A stretch of 64,000 bases of DNA from Ostreococcus lucimarinus (taxonomy: Eukaryota). Shown in pieces: positions 457 to 9,497 of the stretch. Position 1 is the stretch's first letter. Each line of letters starts with the position of its first letter. Under the pieces are notes generated by a model, which saw only the letters and a list, made by a program, of their open reading frames with translations, was not told where the DNA came from and did not search any database. Location: the NCBI GenBank assembly GCA_000092065.1, contig CP000585.1, one strand, 5' to 3'. The position numbers were made by a program, and so were the translations under genes.

Positions 457-1110
457 TTAAAGGTGCTCAATAAATTTGACGTACGTCGCTACGGCGTCGT
501 CGGTCATCGGAACGATGTGTCCGCGTTCGTGTTCAAAGACTTGAGCGTTCGCGCCGAACGCCTCTGCTACGCGTCGCGCCTGCGCTGGTGGGTTGATGAC
601 ATCGCGCTCGCCGACGACGTGCAAACTGCGAACGACGTCCGACGGCATCGTTTCTAGCTTGGCCGCCGCACACGTCGGCCAGGCGGCGCCGACGATGATG
701 GCCAATTCTTTAATCGCTCTTTCCTCTTTTTGCTTCCCTCCGTCCTCCGCGATAACTAAAGCAGCGAGCATGGCGCCTTGAGAAAAACCAAACAGGCCGT
801 CCCACGGGCCGGCCTCGATCACGCGCTTCATCGAAATATCTAACCCAGGAAGCGACGCGGCGTTGTAAGTGCGCTGTCCGGGCTGCAACGTCCACCATCC
901 GCGCCCGCCCGGGTTCGGCTCTGGTTGGGTGCCATCGGCGAAATGCCAGTCCCAACTGTTCGAGGTCGCGTCCACGAGCGGTGCGAGCCCGCGCGCGAAC
1001 GAGGCCGCGTTCCCACCCTTGCCGTGCAAGCAAAGCATGCGTTTCTTGCGCGTCACATCACCATCGCTCGAGACCATCGTCGCCGTCGCCGCGCGAGCGA
1101 TGGGTGGCAT
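457..1110 (-). CDS. FSH1/OVCA2-family serine hydrolase (alpha/beta hydrolase, DUF341-like)
   Basis: 217-aa ORF; N-terminal LCLHGKGGNAASF, nucleophile-elbow-like GFSQG, C-terminal HxxGERD...H pattern typical of FSH1/OVCA2 hydrolases. Confidence 0.55.
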   Translation of the reverse strand: MPPIARAATATMVSSDGDVTRKKRMLCLHGKGGNAASFARGLAPLVDATSNSWDWHFADGTQPEPNPGGRGWWTLQPGQRTYNAASLPGLDISMKRVIEAGPWDGLFGFSQGAMLAALVIAEDGGKQKEERAIKELAIIVGAAWPTCAAAKLETMPSDVVRSLHVVGERDVINPPAQARRVAEAFGANAQVFEHERGHIVPMTDDAVATYVKFIEHL

Positions 1111-1173
1111 CGCGCGCCTCGATGTGGTGGACTCGACTCGTCACTTTCCGCCGCCGCGCGATGCCCGCGCGCG

Positions 1174-3378
1174 ATGCCCAAGCGTAAGCGACGGCCGTGG
1201 TTGAGCGAAGACGCGGCGAACGCGGCGAACGCGAACGCGAGCTCAAAGGCGAGCGCGCGACGCGAACGCGAACGCGCGTTTCGCGAAGCCCATCCCGAGC
1301 GCTTCATCGATGAAGAGACGGACGACGAGAAGAACGCGCGACGCGACGCGCGTGCGGGCGAGGCCCGTGCGCACGGAGATGCTCGAGATGGGAGCGCACT
1401 CGGGTCGTTCCTCGATGTGGGTGCGCCGCGCGAACGCAGACGAGGTGGGCACGGACGACGCGCGCGCGACGACGCTGGAACGACAGACCCGACGACTTTG
1501 CCCACGCACGCGCCGTGTCAAACGAGAGACGATATAGATGCGCAGGAGTTTGAACGACGACGGGCGCGCGTGGAGGCGGTGACGAGAGAGATTGGAACGT
1601 GCGCGCGGCACAAGCAGTTGGCACGGGCGTGTGAGATGTTTGTGAACTTGGTCTCTCGCGAGGGGTTGGTGCCATCGCCTTACACGTACGCGTCGTTGCT
1701 CAACGCGTACGTGAACACGGGAACTATGGATGGTGCCGAGGCGTTAATGGAGCGTATGCGAGACGTCGGGTGCGCGCCAAACGTCGTAGCGTACACGACA
1801 ATGTTGAAGGGCTACATGCTCGTGGCGAATGTCGACGCCGCGTGGCGAACGCTCAACGGAATTATGCACAACCGAATGTCGCCCGATAGCCGCGCTGTGA
1901 ACACGTACATTCGAGTGTGCGTGCGATGTGGGAACCTGCAAATGGCGCGCCGCGCTTTTGATCGCATGCGTGACTGGGATGTGGTTCCGGACGCCACAAC
2001 GCACAAGCTCATCGGTCGCTTGCTCGCGCAAGGATTGAAGCGCGACGAACTGAAGGCATTAATCAAGCGCACCGTCAAGGGCGAGCACTTGAGATGGACG
2101 AAGGACCCAAGCAGCGGGCCTTGTCAATTTTGGCGCGCTGGGAAATGCGAGCGAGGCGTGAATTGTCGTTTTTATCACGACGATTCAATCGTGCAAAGCG
2201 ACGCGCGCGTGCGTGAGATTGAATCAAATGATACTTTGGCGAGCATGTACGTGAATCACGCGCATGCGTCGGCAATTTCAGGAGACGTGAAACAGAGCAA
2301 AAAGTCGCTTCGCAAAGCCGCAGAGTATCTGACCGAAAATGTCACCGCGGAAGCTTTGACAGTCGGCGGTCTGAAGGATAAAGACGAGCGGGCCGAGTTG
2401 TTTCGTCAAACAAACCGCGACGAGCTCAAACTCGAGATGCGACGCATCGAGGACTTCGTCGAACGATTGATGAGTGGCAAACAACAGCCTCCGAAGCTGG
2501 ACGAACATTTGTCGAGAAGTTTAATCTTTAGTTCACGACTTTTCCAAGAAGTACCAGAACGCGGCGCAAAGATGTCGAGCGAGGAAGTCGACGCACTGCG
2601 CGACAATCTCTACGCCGCGTTGAAGGACACGATGGGGTTGAACGACGATTCCGACGGCTCGGTCAAGCGTGCGATTCGTAAAGTCATCGCAAAAGATGGT
2701 ACGATACGATTTGATCGCATGTTTGGACGTTCCAAAAAGGAGAAGCGCGAGCTGAATGTTGAAGTCGCCGCTGGGAATGGGGACTGGGCTGTGGCTCAAG
2801 CGAAGACTGACGCCTCGGCGGATTGGATCTCTCTCGAGCTTCGTCACGACCGCGTCTACAGCATTTTCTCCCGCGCCGTGTGTTCAGGTGCTTCGAATTT
2901 CGCCGCGATGGGTGGTGACGCGGCGTACATCATGCGTCGTTACGTCGCCTCAGAATCAGTATCGCACGTGTTCGTGAACTTCCCGGAGCCGCCGCATCAC
3001 AGCGGCGACGCTGCGGCGGATAACTCTCTTGCTCTGCTCAACGAGGAGTTTTTCCGCGACATTCACGCGTGTCTCAGACGTGCATACACTTCGACAGATG
3101 CTCCCGGTGGTTTAACGATATTTAGCGACAACCACAGATACATGCAGGCGCTCGCACGCACGCTTGCTGAGCTTGATATATTCACCGCTCGCGACGACGT
3201 CGACCTGGCGTCGGGCGCGCCGGCGAATCAATACGAAACGATTCGCGGCGTTCGTTTGTATCAGGGCGTACCCGGTCCTTCCGCTGGCCATCGCGTGTAC
3301 GAACAGTCGTATTTCGATCGATTTTGGGAAAACGGCCAGCACGTCGATCGGTATTTCATCAGTCTTGTAAGAAAATAG
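1174..3378 (+). CDS. PPR-repeat protein fused to a CCCH zinc finger and a C-terminal TrmB-like (tRNA m7G methyltransferase fold) domain
   Basis: Single 817-aa ORF (925..3378); a start at 925 would overlap the FSH1 gene, so ATG 1174 (MPKRKRR) is preferred. About four 35-aa PPR-like repeats (VPSPYTYASLLNAYVNTG...VVAYTTMLKGY...). C-x8-C-x5-C-x3-H finger (CQFWRAGKCERGVNCRFYHD). C-terminus matches the TrmB/Methyltransf_4 pattern (GNGDWAVAQAK...VFVNFPEPPHH...LTIFSDNHRY). Confidence 0.55.
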   Translation: MPKRKRRPWLSEDAANAANANASSKASARRERERAFREAHPERFIDEETDDEKNARRDARAGEARAHGDARDGSALGSFLDVGAPRERRRGGHGRRARDDAGTTDPTTLPTHAPCQTRDDIDAQEFERRRARVEAVTREIGTCARHKQLARACEMFVNLVSREGLVPSPYTYASLLNAYVNTGTMDGAEALMERMRDVGCAPNVVAYTTMLKGYMLVANVDAAWRTLNGIMHNRMSPDSRAVNTYIRVCVRCGNLQMARRAFDRMRDWDVVPDATTHKLIGRLLAQGLKRDELKALIKRTVKGEHLRWTKDPSSGPCQFWRAGKCERGVNCRFYHDDSIVQSDARVREIESNDTLASMYVNHAHASAISGDVKQSKKSLRKAAEYLTENVTAEALTVGGLKDKDERAELFRQTNRDELKLEMRRIEDFVERLMSGKQQPPKLDEHLSRSLIFSSRLFQEVPERGAKMSSEEVDALRDNLYAALKDTMGLNDDSDGSVKRAIRKVIAKDGTIRFDRMFGRSKKEKRELNVEVAAGNGDWAVAQAKTDASADWISLELRHDRVYSIFSRAVCSGASNFAAMGGDAAYIMRRYVASESVSHVFVNFPEPPHHSGDAAADNSLALLNEEFFRDIHACLRRAYTSTDAPGGLTIFSDNHRYMQALARTLAELDIFTARDDVDLASGAPANQYETIRGVRLYQGVPGPSAGHRVYEQSYFDRFWENGQHVDRYFISLVRK

Positions 3379-3457
3379 TGTAGTCGTCGAATCCGCGCGA
3401 ATGCGTCATTGCGCGACTCCCCTCCCGCGTTCGCCGCGGGCGTTGCGTATCCGTGCG

Positions 3458-4441
3458 ATGGGGAAGAACGACGACGAACGCGGCATCGAGCGCCGCCGAA
3501 TCTTGCTCGTATTCGACCTCAACGGCTTGTTCGTCGAGCGCTTCCGAAACGGAAAATTCACCAGACCTCACGCGGTCGACGCCATCGAAACGGAGCGCGC
3601 CGTTGAGATCGAAGACGCTGTGCCGCGCGCCTCTTCTCCGGTGTCTTCGCGTACGCGCGGTGCGGCGACGCGACTCGAGGTCGTGGAGCCGGACTTTCGG
3701 GTTGGCCGTCACAACCATTACGTTAGGCGCTACACTGAAGAATTTTTGCGCTGGGCTCATGGGCGCTTCGACGTCGCTGTGTGGTCTTCTGCGATGGAAG
3801 TGAACACGACGGCGATGGTGGAAAATATATGGCCGTCCGATTTACGGTCGAAGATCGCGTTCGTGCTCAATCAAGACCACTGCGCGGTGGACGGCGTGAT
3901 GAAAACCAAAGGCGGCTCGAAAGGAACAAAGCCAAAGTTTCTGAAACCGCTGTCGGTGGTGTGGGAAAAGTTTGCGGATAGGTTCGATGCTATGAACACG
4001 TTACTCATCGACGACGACGCGTACAAGGCCATTCGCAACCCTGCGAATACGGCAATCCATCCGAAACCATTTTCTGTGGCGACGCGTGATTCCGACGACG
4101 GACTCAGCGCGAATGGCGCGCTCCGCAAATACCTCGCGAGACTTCTCGCGAGCGACTCGGTGCCCGACTTCGTCAAGGCAAATCGCTTCATCGACGGACA
4201 ACATGACGAAAGGTCAAATGAAGGATTTGTCGAAGATGTAGCAAAGAGCATTGAAACGGTTAACGCAAAACTCGCCGCGTTGCGCGTTCAAGAGAAGGTA
4301 TCACGGCAAAAGACGAAACCCGAGATGAGGATTCCACTTCCGAAATCGCTCATCATGAGGAACGCGGCGAAGACTCGAACGATCGCGCCCGTCGAGCCCG
4401 TCGTAACGCCGACGAGCGAACGAACACGGAGCACTAGGTAG
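3458..4441 (+). CDS. FCP1-homology/NIF-type (CPDc, HAD-like) phosphatase-domain protein with non-canonical motif I (DLNGL); tandem paralog 1
   Basis: ORF 3401..4441; ATG 3458 (MGKNDDERG) is chosen because it clears the upstream gene. LLVFDLNGLFV sits where DLDETL is expected; conserved WSSA...NT, TLLIDDDAYKAIRNPANTAIHPKPF and DSDD...DVR-like blocks typical of CTD-phosphatase-like domains. Confidence 0.6.
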   Translation: MGKNDDERGIERRRILLVFDLNGLFVERFRNGKFTRPHAVDAIETERAVEIEDAVPRASSPVSSRTRGAATRLEVVEPDFRVGRHNHYVRRYTEEFLRWAHGRFDVAVWSSAMEVNTTAMVENIWPSDLRSKIAFVLNQDHCAVDGVMKTKGGSKGTKPKFLKPLSVVWEKFADRFDAMNTLLIDDDAYKAIRNPANTAIHPKPFSVATRDSDDGLSANGALRKYLARLLASDSVPDFVKANRFIDGQHDERSNEGFVEDVAKSIETVNAKLAALRVQEKVSRQKTKPEMRIPLPKSLIMRNAAKTRTIAPVEPVVTPTSERTRSTR

Positions 4442-4527
4442 CAACTAGAGAAGTAGCGTTTTAGTTTTAGTTAGTTTTAGCGTACCCCGACCAAGACCTC
4501 AGTGCGCGCCGCGCGCTCGAACGCACT

Positions 4528-5739
4528 ATGCCCAAGAAGAAACAGGAAATCATCACCACGCGCGCGTCAAATCGGCTGAAAGCACGCGCCGCGGCGGCGC
4601 AGGAAGCCGCGGACGAGGCGATGCGCGCCGGCAAGCGTCCGGCAGTTGCTGCACGAAAGGCTGCGGTAAAGCTCGCCAAAGTCGCCGCCGATGCCGCAAA
4701 GTCGGTGACTGCGAGGGACAAGCGAGGGAATAAGCGCCTGAACGTCGTCGAAGCAGACGCAGCGGCCGAAGATGGCGCGAAAGAGGCGCGGGCTCCGCCG
4801 CCGCCACCGAAGAAGAATGCGAAAAAAAGCTCGGCGAACGCGCTCGTGGCGGCGTCGGGGGCCATCGGGAACACGCGCGCGGTGAGTGCGGTGAAACACG
4901 ACAAGCTTCTCGTCCTCGACCTTAACGGGCTGTTCATCGATCGTCGAATCAAGAGACACGTGAGGGAGGGCGACGACGACGTGGCGTCCGACGAAGAACT
5001 ACGCACTGAGTTGAGGCTGGACGTGGACTCGATCGAGGCGCCGACAAACTCGAAGGAAGTGACGGAGGACGCCAAAGTTGGCAACTTTTACGTGTACGAA
5101 CGTCCACACATGCGCGAGTTTATTGAATGGGTGCACACGCGGTTTGAAGTGGGCGTGTGGTCGAGCGCCAACTTTCGAAACACGACGAATTTGGTAGACT
5201 ACGTGTGGGGCGAGCACAAAAACAAAATCGCATTCGTTTGGGGGCAAGAAAGGTGCTCTGATGTTGGCATCGCGCCCTCATCGACGTCGACGCGCCCAAT
5301 GTTTCTCAAAGAATTGAAACACGTCTGGAAACTTAAAAGGAACACGGGGCTATCTCACTTCAACAAAACGAATACGCTTTTGATTGACGACTCGCCTTAC
5401 AAAGCCATTCGAAACCCCGCGCACACCGCCATCCATCCGTGCGGATTCACCACGGACGATCGTGAGTCGGACGATTTGTTGAGTGAACATGGCGCGCTTC
5501 GCCAATATCTCGAGCGATTGTCAGACGCAAAATCTGTCCCTGACTTCGTGCAGACCAACCCGTGGAATGGTGGGAAGATCAGCGAGCAGCACCAAAGGCA
5601 AATTGCACACGCACACGAAGCTTGCGCAATCGCGACTCAAAAGGCAAAGGCAAAGCTATTTGCTTTCAGGGATCCTTTGGAAATCGATTTGGACGAGGAG
5701 CTCGCCGACCCTTTGGAAATCGATTTGGACAATCTCTAG
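4528..5739 (+). CDS. FCP1-homology/NIF-type phosphatase-domain protein, tandem paralog 2 (DLNGL motif; Lys/Ala-rich N-terminus; C-terminal 12-aa direct repeat)
   Basis: 403-aa ORF starting MPKKKQ; LLVLDLNGLFIDR, WSSANFRNTT, TLLIDDSPYKAIRNPAHTAIHPCGF and ESDDLLSEHGALRQYLERL are collinear with paralog 1; C-terminus DPLEIDLDEELADPLEIDLDNL. Confidence 0.65.
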   Translation: MPKKKQEIITTRASNRLKARAAAAQEAADEAMRAGKRPAVAARKAAVKLAKVAADAAKSVTARDKRGNKRLNVVEADAAAEDGAKEARAPPPPPKKNAKKSSANALVAASGAIGNTRAVSAVKHDKLLVLDLNGLFIDRRIKRHVREGDDDVASDEELRTELRLDVDSIEAPTNSKEVTEDAKVGNFYVYERPHMREFIEWVHTRFEVGVWSSANFRNTTNLVDYVWGEHKNKIAFVWGQERCSDVGIAPSSTSTRPMFLKELKHVWKLKRNTGLSHFNKTNTLLIDDSPYKAIRNPAHTAIHPCGFTTDDRESDDLLSEHGALRQYLERLSDAKSVPDFVQTNPWNGGKISEQHQRQIAHAHEACAIATQKAKAKLFAFRDPLEIDLDEELADPLEIDLDNL

Positions 5740-5770
5740 CGTCCACTACAATCTACGAATCTAGCTAGCC

Positions 5771-8700
5771 CTAAGTAAGTTTTATTTGTGATAGCCTCAT
5801 CATTAGCTCTTCTTTTGGACGCGTTGGGATCGCACTCGCAGACCAGAAGCGAAGCATCGGTAAGCAGTTTGTCGAAATTGCATACTCGCCGACGCGCACC
5901 TCGCGCGGTTTTGGATCGATGGCGAAAGAAAACGCTGATGCGTGCGGTGGGCTCGACGAATCTTCGCCATCGTGATACCGATACTGCTTGCGACACTCGA
6001 ATATCATCTCATTCAAAGATGTCGCGTACGACACGGCTGTTCGTACCGCCGCGGAATCTTTGCCGCCGAGAACGTTTGAGGCGTGACCGCGCACGACGTG
6101 ACCGCCCGTGACAGCTCCCAGATCTCTTTCCTCGTCGCTACTCTTTATCAAACGCGACGTCACTCGACCATGCTTTTTCACTATCGCCAGGATCTCGTTC
6201 CGAACTTCTAGCGGCGTGAGCGCCATTCCGGCTTCGCCGGTTAGCCAACAGTCGGCTTGAGCCGTGCCGTCGTCTAAAATCACAGAAGCCTCGACTTCGA
6301 ACACACCCGGCCTCGAAGTTCCACGTGCTGAGGGGCGACACACGTCACATCCAGCCAAAACTGCGGGTAACCTGCGCTTGGTCGCGCCAGTGGCGGGGTT
6401 AACGCTCACGTGCATGAGTGATCCGGCGTCGCAACCGCACGCCGGACAGCACCAGCGAACCGTCAACATGGACACCGAAACGACTCGAGCACGCACCGCG
6501 AACGTTCGTCTACTGATTACCAGCCGCTCGCCTGAGTTGCGCATTTCTTCGTCAAAGAGTGCACGAATCGACTGCCTCATCGAAATATTCGTCAAAAGTG
6601 GCAGGTATTCAGATGTCGACGCGCATCGCTCGTGGATCTCAATCGTCGTCACGCCGGGATTCAGTTTGACGTATATGTTCATTGACGCCGCAGAAAGATG
6701 ACGCATCGCGCGATGAATCGTAATTTTTGCTCCTATGCCCACTCCGACGGGAAGGCTGAACGCGGACGTCTTACAGTACACGTCGACAACGTCGTGCGTC
6801 TCGACGTCTTGAACTTTGAATCTCGGCTCCCAGCCAAACTGTGATTGGGATTCTCTACGATTTTCACTCTCAAACCATTCTTCGGCGACGATGATACACC
6901 TAAATGACACAAGTTCTGGTGATGGTTGCCACGAATCTGCACTGCTGAGATGTTTCGCGAAGACTTTGCCCCACACTAGAACATCTCGCACGTCGCGCAC
7001 TTCGGGCGTCGCCGTCATCTCGTCGTCTTCATCGTCGGGCAACACGAAAGCGTCAACATCTGGACGCTCGTCGACGATAAACGTCGTCGCCCCGGAATTC
7101 AGAGTCGGGACGATCGGAATCAAATACGTCGTGCCGTGTCGAAGCAGACAGAACCAACTGTTCTTGGGTCCGAAAGAGACGGCGATTCTGCCGCTGCTTC
7201 GAGACTCGTGCGTCGTGTTCACTATGACGCCGTCCAACGTCTTTACGCCCCCTTGCGCCGTATAGACCTGAATGCTCGTACGTTGTTTCACTTCGGACGA
7301 CGCATCGATTGTGAAAGTCCACGTCGGGGCGACGATAGGATGAGAAAACTTGGAACTGGCGAGTCGCGGCGGGAGCAGCTGCGCGCCCTTCGTCGCCGAA
7401 TTGACGGCCACGTACATGGTGCCGTGGCTCTCTGATTTGGCGCTCGATGTCGGGTTTTGAATGACGACAATATTATCCGAGTCCACGCATAGACTCACGC
7501 GCACCGAAGCGTTGTGATGGTTCAACGCGTCGGCGCGAGAACCGACGTACGCGCCTTCGCACATGATTTCGCACTCCCTGAGCACGACGAGTTTGTTCAA
7601 CATGCTCGGCGCGGGCGCTCGTTTCAAGAATGATTCGATGCAAAGCTCCACAGCTCCTGATGCGTCGACGACGTGGAGTCGTCCATACATGCAGCGTAAT
7701 ATGCCCATGACGTAACGAGGTGGATCAACCTCGCCCAACCGCCCCGTCGCGCGAATGACGACTTTACCTTCGTTGCGAGTGCTGCCGCGCTTGCACGCGG
7801 CGGCGACTTTGTTTTCATCTTTCCACTTCTCAAATACGGCGTCTTTCAACGAGTTTATCGTCGGGACGTCGAAATTACTGATGGACTCCCCGCCCAGTGG
7901 CGTCGGAGCGAAAAACTCTCGGTAAACGTCTGCTCGTTTGAACGCCTTCGAGCCCAAGTCGTGCATCGCCAGTAACAGCGGCGCCGCGGTTTGTTCGTCG
8001 CTCGCTTCACCCGTCTTCCCGAGCGCGTACTCGGCGCTCGCGACATCGATCAGCCTAGAATCGTTCAGAATATCAAAGTTGGTCTCAAAAACTTCCCGCC
8101 ATGCCGCGGCGGCTTCGGCGTACACGAAATTCGACTGTTCCACGACGTACTTGAGCACGCGCGAAAACCGATTCGCCTTTTCGTCCGCGTTGTCTGAGTA
8201 CATCTCGGTCTCTCCTTCCGATGCGTTCTCCGTCGATGTGCGCTTTATCACAATTTGGGTGCGTAAATCAACACCGAGCGTCTCCACGACCCGCTCGTTG
8301 TATTCATCGACTCGCCAAACAGGATGCGCGTGCGTTACGACGACGCGCGCGCCGACGCGCAAACCGGAAACGACGATCTTTGAGTCGACGAGAGGAACGT
8401 GCGTAAACGTGAGTTTGACGTCCCGTCCTTGAGCGTCACGCAGGATCGCGTACGCACGACTAGTACGAACCGATACGACGTGTCCTTCAAACCTATCCAC
8501 CGTCGCCCCTGCGCCGCACATGGCGCACGCGCACGCGCAGCGACGCACTCTGCGCTCGCCAAAGGTGAGACTAACCACGTGAAACTCAGCCGTGGCGGAA
8601 AATGCGCGTAATTCGTGCGTCGCGTCGCCCTTGAATAACACGACTTTGCGTAAATTTCGCATCTCCACCCTCGAACCGACGCACTGTCTTAATATGCACT

Positions 8701-9430
8701 CCCATCGCGCCAGAAACTCTCCGTTAAAAATGATCGGAATCTGCGCGCCGGCGTCGTCTTCGTTTCTAAGCGCGCACATGAAGAACGTCGACTCACCGGT
8801 GGTGATGATCGGACTCACAGCCTCTAAAATACCTCGATGACACGCCCCTAATTTCCCGTTCAACGCTCGAGCGTCGTTCGCCACGCCATCCTCGTCTTCC
8901 AACGGTCCGCAAGCCAAGGACTCCTCGAATCCGTCGTCGTCGTACGCGCGTTCGACGCAGTTCGCCTCGACGACGACGGCGTCTCCATTCCTCGCGTCTG
9001 TCACGACGACGAAATCTCGCACGCAAACGACGCGTCCTAAATCATGTGCCTTCACGTCCACGCTCGCCAGGCGCACCTCCGCGCCGCCGTCTTCGTCTTT
9101 GTCTTTCGCCGTCCACGTCCACCCCCCGCTCGCGTCGTCTCTTCTTCGCAACCCGAGCGTCGCGCGCATGACGACGCCTTTGACGTCCGCGTTCGAGTTG
9201 GCACCGCGCAGTATCTCGCCCACCGTTCGCACGGCGTCGACGTCTCCGCGCGTCTTTCTCGTCGTCGTCGTCGTCGTCGTCGTCGCTTCGTCGTCGCCGC
9301 GCCTCCCACATCCGTCGCGTCGTCCGTCGCCTTCGCGCCGTCCCGTCTTTGACGCCCTCGGCGCGTCGTCGACTCGGTCGTCGTCCGCGTCGTCGCGCGG
9401 CGGCGGCGTCCCTCGCACCGCGATCGCCAT
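5771..9430 (-). CDS. Large OB-fold protein with C-terminal RPA70 DBD-C-like zinc ribbon; candidate CTC1 (CST complex) homolog
   Basis: ORF 5771..9478 (TTG at 9478 is not a start; first ATG 9430, MAIAVRG). 1219 aa. C-terminal CCPACGCD...CDVC four-Cys ribbon followed by VILDDGTAQADCWLTGEAGMAL resembles RPA70 DBD-C (C4 ribbon then L.L.DhTG...vTaFdE); the size matches plant CTC1 (~1270 aa). Assignment is by pattern only. Confidence 0.45.
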   Translation of the reverse strand: MAIAVRGTPPPRDDADDDRVDDAPRASKTGRREGDGRRDGCGRRGDDEATTTTTTTTRKTRGDVDAVRTVGEILRGANSNADVKGVVMRATLGLRRRDDASGGWTWTAKDKDEDGGAEVRLASVDVKAHDLGRVVCVRDFVVVTDARNGDAVVVEANCVERAYDDDGFEESLACGPLEDEDGVANDARALNGKLGACHRGILEAVSPIITTGESTFFMCALRNEDDAGAQIPIIFNGEFLARWECILRQCVGSRVEMRNLRKVVLFKGDATHELRAFSATAEFHVVSLTFGERRVRRCACACAMCGAGATVDRFEGHVVSVRTSRAYAILRDAQGRDVKLTFTHVPLVDSKIVVSGLRVGARVVVTHAHPVWRVDEYNERVVETLGVDLRTQIVIKRTSTENASEGETEMYSDNADEKANRFSRVLKYVVEQSNFVYAEAAAAWREVFETNFDILNDSRLIDVASAEYALGKTGEASDEQTAAPLLLAMHDLGSKAFKRADVYREFFAPTPLGGESISNFDVPTINSLKDAVFEKWKDENKVAAACKRGSTRNEGKVVIRATGRLGEVDPPRYVMGILRCMYGRLHVVDASGAVELCIESFLKRAPAPSMLNKLVVLRECEIMCEGAYVGSRADALNHHNASVRVSLCVDSDNIVVIQNPTSSAKSESHGTMYVAVNSATKGAQLLPPRLASSKFSHPIVAPTWTFTIDASSEVKQRTSIQVYTAQGGVKTLDGVIVNTTHESRSSGRIAVSFGPKNSWFCLLRHGTTYLIPIVPTLNSGATTFIVDERPDVDAFVLPDDEDDEMTATPEVRDVRDVLVWGKVFAKHLSSADSWQPSPELVSFRCIIVAEEWFESENRRESQSQFGWEPRFKVQDVETHDVVDVYCKTSAFSLPVGVGIGAKITIHRAMRHLSAASMNIYVKLNPGVTTIEIHERCASTSEYLPLLTNISMRQSIRALFDEEMRNSGERLVISRRTFAVRARVVSVSMLTVRWCCPACGCDAGSLMHVSVNPATGATKRRLPAVLAGCDVCRPSARGTSRPGVFEVEASVILDDGTAQADCWLTGEAGMALTPLEVRNEILAIVKKHGRVTSRLIKSSDEERDLGAVTGGHVVRGHASNVLGGKDSAAVRTAVSYATSLNEMIFECRKQYRYHDGEDSSSPPHASAFSFAIDPKPREVRVGEYAISTNCLPMLRFWSASAIPTRPKEELMMRLSQIKLT

Positions 9431-9497
9431 CGCGCGCGCCGTCGCGCGCGCCGTCGTCTGTCGCGTGCCCGGTTTCAAATCGAATCGACCGTCGCCT

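Follow-up and report, generated by a model that had tools for sequence, protein, structure and literature searches.

The FCP/SCP (NIF) family of HAD phosphatases carries a motif I in which the nucleophilic aspartate is followed, two residues downstream (position D+2), by a second aspartate, and the roles of these and the other active-site residues have been described for Fcp1. In its BeF3 and AlF3 structures, the side chain of Asp172 (D+2) coordinates the attacking water as the general base, the main-chain carbonyl of the same residue ligates Mg2+, Thr243, Lys280, and backbone amides bind the oxygens of the phosphate, and motif IV contributes Asp297/Asp298, of which Asp297 coordinates one Mg2+-bound water (PMC4436666). 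Departures from this scheme are barely explored: Tim50, which in yeast lacks the canonical DXDX(T/V) residues, was the sole accepted HAD-fold pseudophosphatase until a 2026 survey in ACS Omega flagged fungal NIF proteins with a "noncanonical DXNXT motif" from S. pombe, Aspergillus, Neurospora, and Talaromyces as the second HAD-family candidate (PMC13216928). That group was termed fungal specific, with no human homologue, and only stress phenotypes from S. pombe screens, with no enzymology, were reported for it (PMC13216928). Here we describe two adjacent genes, paralogs A and B, in a 64,000-nucleotide stretch of Ostreococcus lucimarinus contig CP000585.1 (assembly GCA_000092065.1; this whole stretch is hereafter the window), which belong to the FCP/SCP (NIF) HAD family and in which the D+2 aspartate is replaced by asparagine. 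We find that this signature is real and inherited and that it is not unique to the A/B locus but marks a very large and strongly constrained branch of proteins from green algae, land plants, and giant viruses of picoalgae.

An initial annotation, made from the sequence alone, had proposed two same-strand genes with an 86-bp spacer, encoding NIF-like domains that share the motif I sequence DLNGLF and could be pseudophosphatases. The gene coordinates, the domain assignment, and the reading of motif I, with the nucleophilic Asp kept and Asn at D+2, all hold up against the open reading frame (ORF) translations, the Pfam matches, and an alignment of 242 related domains. The two genes and their active-site motifs are as follows.

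3458-4441, plus strand: paralog A, a 327-amino-acid (aa) NIF/FCP-homology protein with a DxNG motif I (ORF from ATG to TAG, Pfam NIF match, dN/dS, exact protein on public contigs)
3515-3532, plus strand: motif I of A, DLNGLF (D20-F25), with nucleophile D20 and N22 at D+2 (ORF translation, codons, alignment)
3779-3793, plus strand: motif II of A, VWSSA, with S110 (hmmalign mapping)
3944-3946, plus strand: motif III lysine of A, K163 (hmmalign mapping)
4010-4015, plus strand: motif IV Asp-Asp of A, D185/D186 (hmmalign mapping)
4528-5739, plus strand: paralog B, a 403-aa NIF/FCP-homology protein with a DxNG motif I (ORF, Pfam NIF match, AlphaFold2 model, Foldseek, dN/dS)
4918-4935, plus strand: motif I of B, DLNGLF (D131-F136), with nucleophile D131 and N133 at D+2 (ORF translation, codons, alignment)
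5155-5169, plus strand: motif II of B, VWSSA, with S212 (hmmalign mapping; aligned on WSATS of UBLCP1)
5308-5310, plus strand: motif III lysine of B, K261 (hmmalign mapping, UBLCP1 alignment)
5386-5391, plus strand: motif IV Asp-Asp of B, D287/D288 (hmmalign mapping, UBLCP1 alignment)

Both products score well above the cutoff of 21.8 bits for Pfam NIF (PF03031), A with 49.3 bits (E 5.8e-13) and B with 57.7 bits (E 1.5e-15), the latter match spanning positions 1-159 of the 160 in the profile. They are 42% identical to each other across 269 aligned columns (E 7e-54). The AlphaFold2 model of B, built from alignment A1, has a mean predicted local distance difference test (pLDDT) score of 78 and exceeds 90 across the domain, which adopts the HAD Rossmannoid core with an FCP/SCP-type fold: the top 32 Foldseek matches against the PDB are all Scp1/2/3, CTDNEP1, Tim50, UBLCP1, or Fcp1, with template-modeling (TM) scores normalized to the target of 0.63-0.77 for Scp1/2/3 and E values of about 1e-9 for Scp1, Fcp1, and CTDNEP1. 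Profile searches of the PDB retrieved UBLCP1 (3SHQ) as the closest entry (E 3.4e-8), followed by Scp1 (about 8e-4), with no match to Tim50 at E<0.01; querying the PDB with the full-length B sequence alone gave nothing but noise. In the alignment to 3SHQ, the comparison with solved structures for which the initial annotation had called, DLNGL falls on DIDYT, WSSA on WSATS, the motif III Lys on Lys, and the motif IV Asp-Asp on Asp-Asp. Neither protein has a ubiquitin-family Pfam match, and neither has a transmembrane segment (19-residue Kyte-Doolittle maxima of 0.66 for A and 0.95 for B).

In context, motif I is LLVFDLNGLF for A and LLVLDLNGLF for B, and both use the codon AAC for the Asn; the canonical DxDx(T/V) with two aspartates is thus found in neither, whereas the motif II Ser/Thr, the motif III Lys, and the motif IV acidic pair are found in both. 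The initial annotation also counted the replacement of the conserved Thr by Leu as a notable change. The Leu is indeed present at D+4, but the general HAD pattern DxDG[TV] accommodates both the Gly at D+3 and the aliphatic side chain at D+4. The Asp-to-Asn change at D+2 is the sole mechanistically significant change in motif I.

The extent of this signature became apparent from homologue searches. Among 101 first-pass homologues, drawn from Mamiellales metagenomes, Bathycoccus, and many land plants, all but 3 have D[LIV]NG[LF] at motif I; two of the exceptions did not match the search pattern at all, and the third, a plant protein, matched first at an unrelated site. A profile search of 1.84 billion cluster representatives (clusters at 50% identity) gave 6,845 matches at E<=1e-3 and at least 764 at E<=1e-30, and orthologs with the same signature, which the initial annotation had suggested seeking, occur branch-wide: each of the 150 best representatives has D[LVIM]NG. 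The named representatives are exclusively from land plants or Micromonas commoda and are labeled "FCP1 homology domain-containing" or "uncharacterized." A second and a third homologue search, run with profile A1 and with the divergent member P0084, added no named nongreen sequences. When 242 unique domains from Mamiellales, land plants, and metagenomes were aligned to the family hidden Markov model, D+2 proved to be Asn in 95.9% and Asp in none, flanked by the nucleophilic Asp (97.1%), Gly at D+3 (97.9%), and Leu, Ile, or Val at D+4 (97%), with no Thr at D+4 (DxNGT) in any retrieved domain. The remaining catalytic positions are equally constrained, namely, the motif II Ser/Thr (98.8%), the motif III Lys (98.3%), and the motif IV Asp-Asp (97.9% and 95.5%). 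DxNG is the ancestral signature of a large, old branch that includes the Mamiellales, land plants, and viral contigs, and the A/B pair is an ordinary member of this uncharacterized branch. It had been argued that the identical substitution in both paralogs bespeaks a selected state. A selected state is borne out by dN/dS and by the branch-wide Asn, but because DxNG is ancestral to the branch, the shared Asn of A and B is inherited and provides no independent evidence; the selection argument holds for the whole branch and not for the pair alone.

The green-lineage extent of the signature appears to be undescribed in the literature that we searched. No paper in the full-text searches contained the strings DLNGLL, DLNGTL, or DLNGLF, and the matches to "DXNX" were lectins or SPSB1 degrons. 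Searches of the plant CPL-family literature and with Arabidopsis and S. pombe gene identifiers returned nothing on the DxNG branch, and the TriTryp phosphatome and prasinovirus literature searched mentions neither the motif nor the gene. The initial annotation had allowed that DLNG might be the signature of a known active subfamily; no activity data were found in the literature searched for any DxNG or DXNXT member, green or fungal.

Could the Asn instead reflect an artifact or decay, that is, a sequencing error or frameshift masking DLDET, a pair of pseudogenes, or a single two-domain gene wrongly split? In its favor, the NCBI reference model of B (XP_001417640.1) is merely a 195-aa "predicted protein, partial," and some homologues have two DxNG domains within one polypeptide. 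Metagenomic gene calls support the full 403-aa ORF of B, however, both ORFs are intact, and the exact A and B proteins recur on 469 and 455 public contigs, respectively. Relative to a sister strain (dS of about 0.13), represented by a diverged copy in the metagenome contig L002, the ratios of nonsynonymous to synonymous substitution rates (dN/dS) are 0.17 for A and 0.30 for B, values far under 1 that mark purifying selection on both genes. In an Ostreococcus-like relative at greater distance, the same Asn has the codon AAC in A but AAT in B, a synonymous change, and the Asn is family-wide. A and B also lie in different reading frames of the same strand and, in related contigs, on opposite strands flanking the gene for a pentatricopeptide repeat (PPR) protein, which rejects a single two-domain gene. 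Together these observations refute the artifact reading, whose residual probability we regard as negligible: A and B are two intact, separate genes, and they look like expressed ones. The ORF of A has a longer in-frame version beginning at 3401.

When the Fcp1 roles are mapped on paralog B, they fall on D131, on N133 (carbonyl kept, carboxylate lost), on D288/D287, on S212, and on K261. All the Mg2+- and phosphate-binding residues of Fcp1 and Scp1 are kept in both paralogs, namely, the nucleophilic Asp, the motif II Ser, the motif III Lys, and the motif IV Asp-Asp. The Mg2+ ligand at D+2 would be unaffected by the Asn because it is a main-chain carbonyl, and the Mg2+/phosphate pocket is predicted to be intact because only the D+2 carboxylate is lost while the other residues are kept. 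That carboxylate is the group that protonates the leaving Ser/Thr oxygen and activates water for hydrolysis of the aspartyl-phosphate. A and B might hence dock a phosphorylated ligand in a Mg2+-containing pocket with very slow turnover or none and act as natural "substrate traps" or as phospho-dependent binding or regulatory proteins, that is, as pseudophosphatases in a loose sense. We give an even chance to this favored proposal of a phospho-ligand-binding module with an intact Mg2+/phosphate pocket and slow or no turnover, which is built on analogy with Fcp1. To this extent the "possible pseudophosphatase" of the initial annotation is a fair hypothesis, and the same label has been given to the fungal DXNXT NIF proteins (PMC13216928).

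Several considerations weigh against this proposal, and most of them speak for its main rival, the tentative but real possibility that A and B are catalytically competent phosphotransferases with an altered mechanism, in which the acid/base is supplied by another residue, a partner subunit, or the substrate, or in which a good leaving group such as that of an acyl-phosphate, pyrophosphate-type, or aryl phosphate substrate needs no protonation. HAD enzymes without Asp at D+2 do exist, as in the P-type ATPases (DKTGT) and the phosphonatases. The near-absolute retention of the nucleophile and the rest of the catalytic constellation (motif II Ser, motif III Lys, and motif IV Asp-Asp at >=95% over hundreds of clusters, across the chlorophyte-streptophyte split), extending to minimal giant-virus versions of 160-184 aa, is equally expected of an active enzyme. 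The branch-specific invariant residues K292, N296, and N218 could be functional replacements, and Lys292, in the DDSPYK segment, may be a substitute acid/base near the pocket. Both phospho-ligand binding and slow turnover are predicted from sequence, and a nuclear role for B rests solely on a basic and poorly conserved tail. Furthermore, some motif-defined "pseudophosphatases," Ppn2 and Asp1, turned out to be active (PMC13216928). On the other side, activity has been reported for no member in the literature searched. Asn or Ala mutants at D+2 of FCP/SCP-family and other HAD phosphatases are reported to be inactive or strongly impaired, and K292, N296, and N218 are proposed as replacements from their conservation. 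The D+2 carboxylate of Fcp1, moreover, is the general base for aspartyl-phosphate hydrolysis (PMC4436666). The other alternative, named as one option in the initial annotation, is a pure structural scaffold that binds neither metal nor phosphate and uses the fold for protein-protein interaction only, as in yeast Tim50. Tim50 is a genuine precedent for a noncatalytic FCP fold, it is among the structural neighbors of B, and many plant DxNG members are automatically named "TIM50" in UniProt. Such a scaffold fits poorly with the near-invariance of all other catalytic and ligand-binding residues: a single position differs in A and B, with the rest invariant at >=95%, whereas yeast Tim50 lacks the canonical DXDX(T/V) (PMC13216928). 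With neither a transmembrane segment nor a Tim50 match in the profile search described above, we consider a pure scaffold quite improbable.

Outside the catalytic core, the two genes have the following further features.

4442-4527, no strand assigned: A-B intergenic spacer of 86 bp with GTTTTAG-like repeats (sequence)
4528-4902, plus strand: N-terminal Ala/Lys/Arg-rich basic tail of B, residues 1-125 (composition, AlphaFold2)
4948-5070, plus strand: acidic low-confidence loop of B, residues 141-181, net charge -8, within the FCP/SCP insertion region (AlphaFold2, alignment, composition)
5671-5736, plus strand: C-terminal duplicated acidic motif of B, DPLEIDLDEELADPLEIDLDNL (sequence, alignment A1)

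The N-terminal tail of B and the acidic loop are the low-confidence regions of the AlphaFold2 model. The tail contains 28.8% Ala, 13.6% Lys, and 8.8% Arg, has a net charge of +16, and is predicted to form two long helices followed by disorder. It had been described as a Lys/Ala-rich, histone-H1-like N terminus; the Lys/Ala-rich composition is there, but the likeness to H1 is rejected, as Ala exceeds Lys, the tail is missing or much shorter in B orthologues of about 57-62% identity, no Linker_histone match was found with Pfam (the sole weak match being MC1, E 0.43), and no H1 was found in the PDB search. The tail plausibly bears a nuclear localization signal, and on the basis of its basic character, B probably acts in the nucleus. 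The region of the acidic loop is short in plant and viral members. At the C terminus of B, the duplicated motif follows the pattern DPLEIDLD[EN]xL, and a single conserved D-x-x-E-I-x-L-D-[DE]-[LI], which may serve as a short linear motif for interactions, stands at the extreme C terminus of B orthologues, among them the Bathycoccus ones and one Micromonas-like protein.

The window has a high GC content (about 55-69%) and tightly packed long ORFs, and an Rfam scan of the whole of it (1-64000) gave no family at the gathering score. Right behind the stop codon of A, the spacer at 4442-4527 holds a short run of GTTTTAG-like repeats (GCGTTTTAGTTTTAGTTAGTTTTAGCG). Upstream of A lies a plus-strand gene (1174-3378) for a 734-aa protein in which PPR repeats are combined with a CCCH zinc finger and with a Methyltransf_4 (TrmB-like) domain, and A follows this PPR-methyltransferase gene in every related contig seen, as it does in the window. 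Adjoining B on the minus strand is a 1,235-aa ORF (5771-9478) with a subthreshold Pfam match to CTC1, a CST telomere maintenance subunit (E 0.0025; 15.8 bits against a cutoff of 27.8); this gene, whose product is 1,200 aa elsewhere, stays beside B in other Ostreococcus-like contigs. A gene for RFC3/5, with a product identical to XP_001417641.1 of O. lucimarinus CCE9901, lies just downstream and marks the stretch as nuclear DNA of that picoalga.

At 925-9478 of the window, the gene order is PPR (plus), A (plus), B (plus), and the 1,235-aa gene (minus), whereas in contigs L007-L009 it is the 1,200-aa gene (plus), B (minus), PPR (plus), and A (plus), followed by genes for a GDSL lipase and Rad17. 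Local rearrangement has thus occurred between Ostreococcus lineages, and the strict A-B tandem is confined to the O. lucimarinus group. Because B lies on the opposite strand, upstream of the PPR gene, in these other contigs, A and B are separate genes in a conserved neighborhood. Two metagenome contigs, L002 and L003, are near-palindromic, with a second, diverged B and A inverted upstream of the PPR gene, and are probably chimeric assemblies of two co-occurring strains.

Minimal DxNG NIF domains of 160-184 aa are encoded by the IMG/VR giant-virus contigs L011-L030 (e.g., L013:2992-3522 and L019:3016-3510), where the motifs read LLIFDLNGIF, VWSS, K, and DDSP[YH]K. These contigs, of up to 196-204 kb and 36-43% GC, look like prasinoviruses, and the copy in L013 lies beside a PHO4 phosphate transporter gene. 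A more divergent 268-aa member with DLNGLL and LIDNS is encoded by a GVMAG contig of 30% GC (L031:2983-3789). A neighbor-joining tree without the viral sequences places the A and B clades together inside the Mamiellales (82% support). Once the viral sequences are added, A joins the viral clade (98% bootstrap). Derived residues fixed in both are a Phe just ahead of the nucleophile and PDF for EDA, and the alignment with the viral sequences contains no residues exclusive to A and B. Given that the host has A next to B, the simpler scenario would be a local duplication and then capture by the virus from the host; the grouping of A with the viruses could also stem from long-branch attraction, or the transfer might have run in the reverse direction.

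Elsewhere in the branch, the DxNG domain is fused to CCCH and Torus zinc fingers, DUF724, RRM, XH, or Methyltransf_16 (the last in Micromonas commoda XP_002508416.1) or is present twice per protein (fused and two-domain members are P0161, P0211, P0150, P0089, P0101, P0019/P0022/P0288, P0018, and P0146-P0151). Some of the two-domain proteins have DIGG or DVSG in one of their copies. The fusion partners offer hints of RNA-linked or nuclear roles. A broader picture, which we regard as rather unlikely as a whole, would make the DxNG NIF branch an ancient eukaryotic class (green and possibly including the fungal DXNXT proteins) without the general acid/base, whose members read or latch phospho-proteins in a Mg2+-dependent way or serve as phosphatases activated by a partner. 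Such proteins would have been repeatedly recruited into RNA-linked architectures of land plants (CCCH/Torus, RRM, XH), and a minimal domain related to paralog A would have been captured by prasinoviruses to manipulate host phospho-signaling.

The interest of these proteins rests mainly on the size and constraint of a branch marked throughout by the same single-residue change, on its viral copies, and on the clean enzymological test that they afford. The 176-aa viral domain and the A and B domains of Ostreococcus are compact, intron-free, and easily expressed, and they allow one to ask whether removal of the D+2 carboxylate makes an FCP phosphatase a phospho-reader or a conditional enzyme.

Among the known systems, UBLCP1 has the solved structure that comes nearest in the profile search, all four of its motifs being in register, and some plant DxNG members are automatically named after it; it differs in its canonical DIDYT and its N-terminal ubiquitin-like domain, whereas A and B carry Asn at D+2 and lack such a domain. 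Scp1/CTDSP1, Fcp1, and CTDNEP1 share the fold, and their RPH, conserved Cys, K-[DE]-L, and DxSP loop are collinear with those of A and B. They retain the acid/base Asp where A and B have Asn, and in the Ostreococcus copies motif I is followed by a long insertion that is acidic or disordered. A and B also lack the BRCT domain of Fcp1 and the membrane anchor and partner signature of CTDNEP1. Tim50, which has a presequence and a transmembrane segment and resides in the mitochondrial inner membrane, resembles A and B in its FCP fold and noncanonical motif I and sets the precedent for a noncatalytic role. A and B, however, are free of transmembrane segments and keep the nucleophilic Asp, whereas the yeast protein is without the canonical residues of motif I. 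The closest counterpart in motif I is the fungal DXNXT group, likewise with a NIF domain and Asn in place of the second Asp. Of the green/viral branch and this counterpart, only the fungal group has been labeled, and only recently, as a candidate pseudophosphatase. The green and viral proteins have D-x-N-G-[LIV], with Leu at D+4 in A and B, whereas Thr is reported in fungi, and no fungal sequences were identifiable among the three homologue searches and the cluster-representative search. The group has been called fungal specific, yet the Asn signature also occurs widely across green algae, land plants, and viral contigs. In NCBI, plant homologues of A and B go under the name "FCP1 homology domain-containing protein C1271.03c-like," taken from an S. 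pombe protein, which suggests that the green DxNG and fungal DXNXT proteins may form one family.

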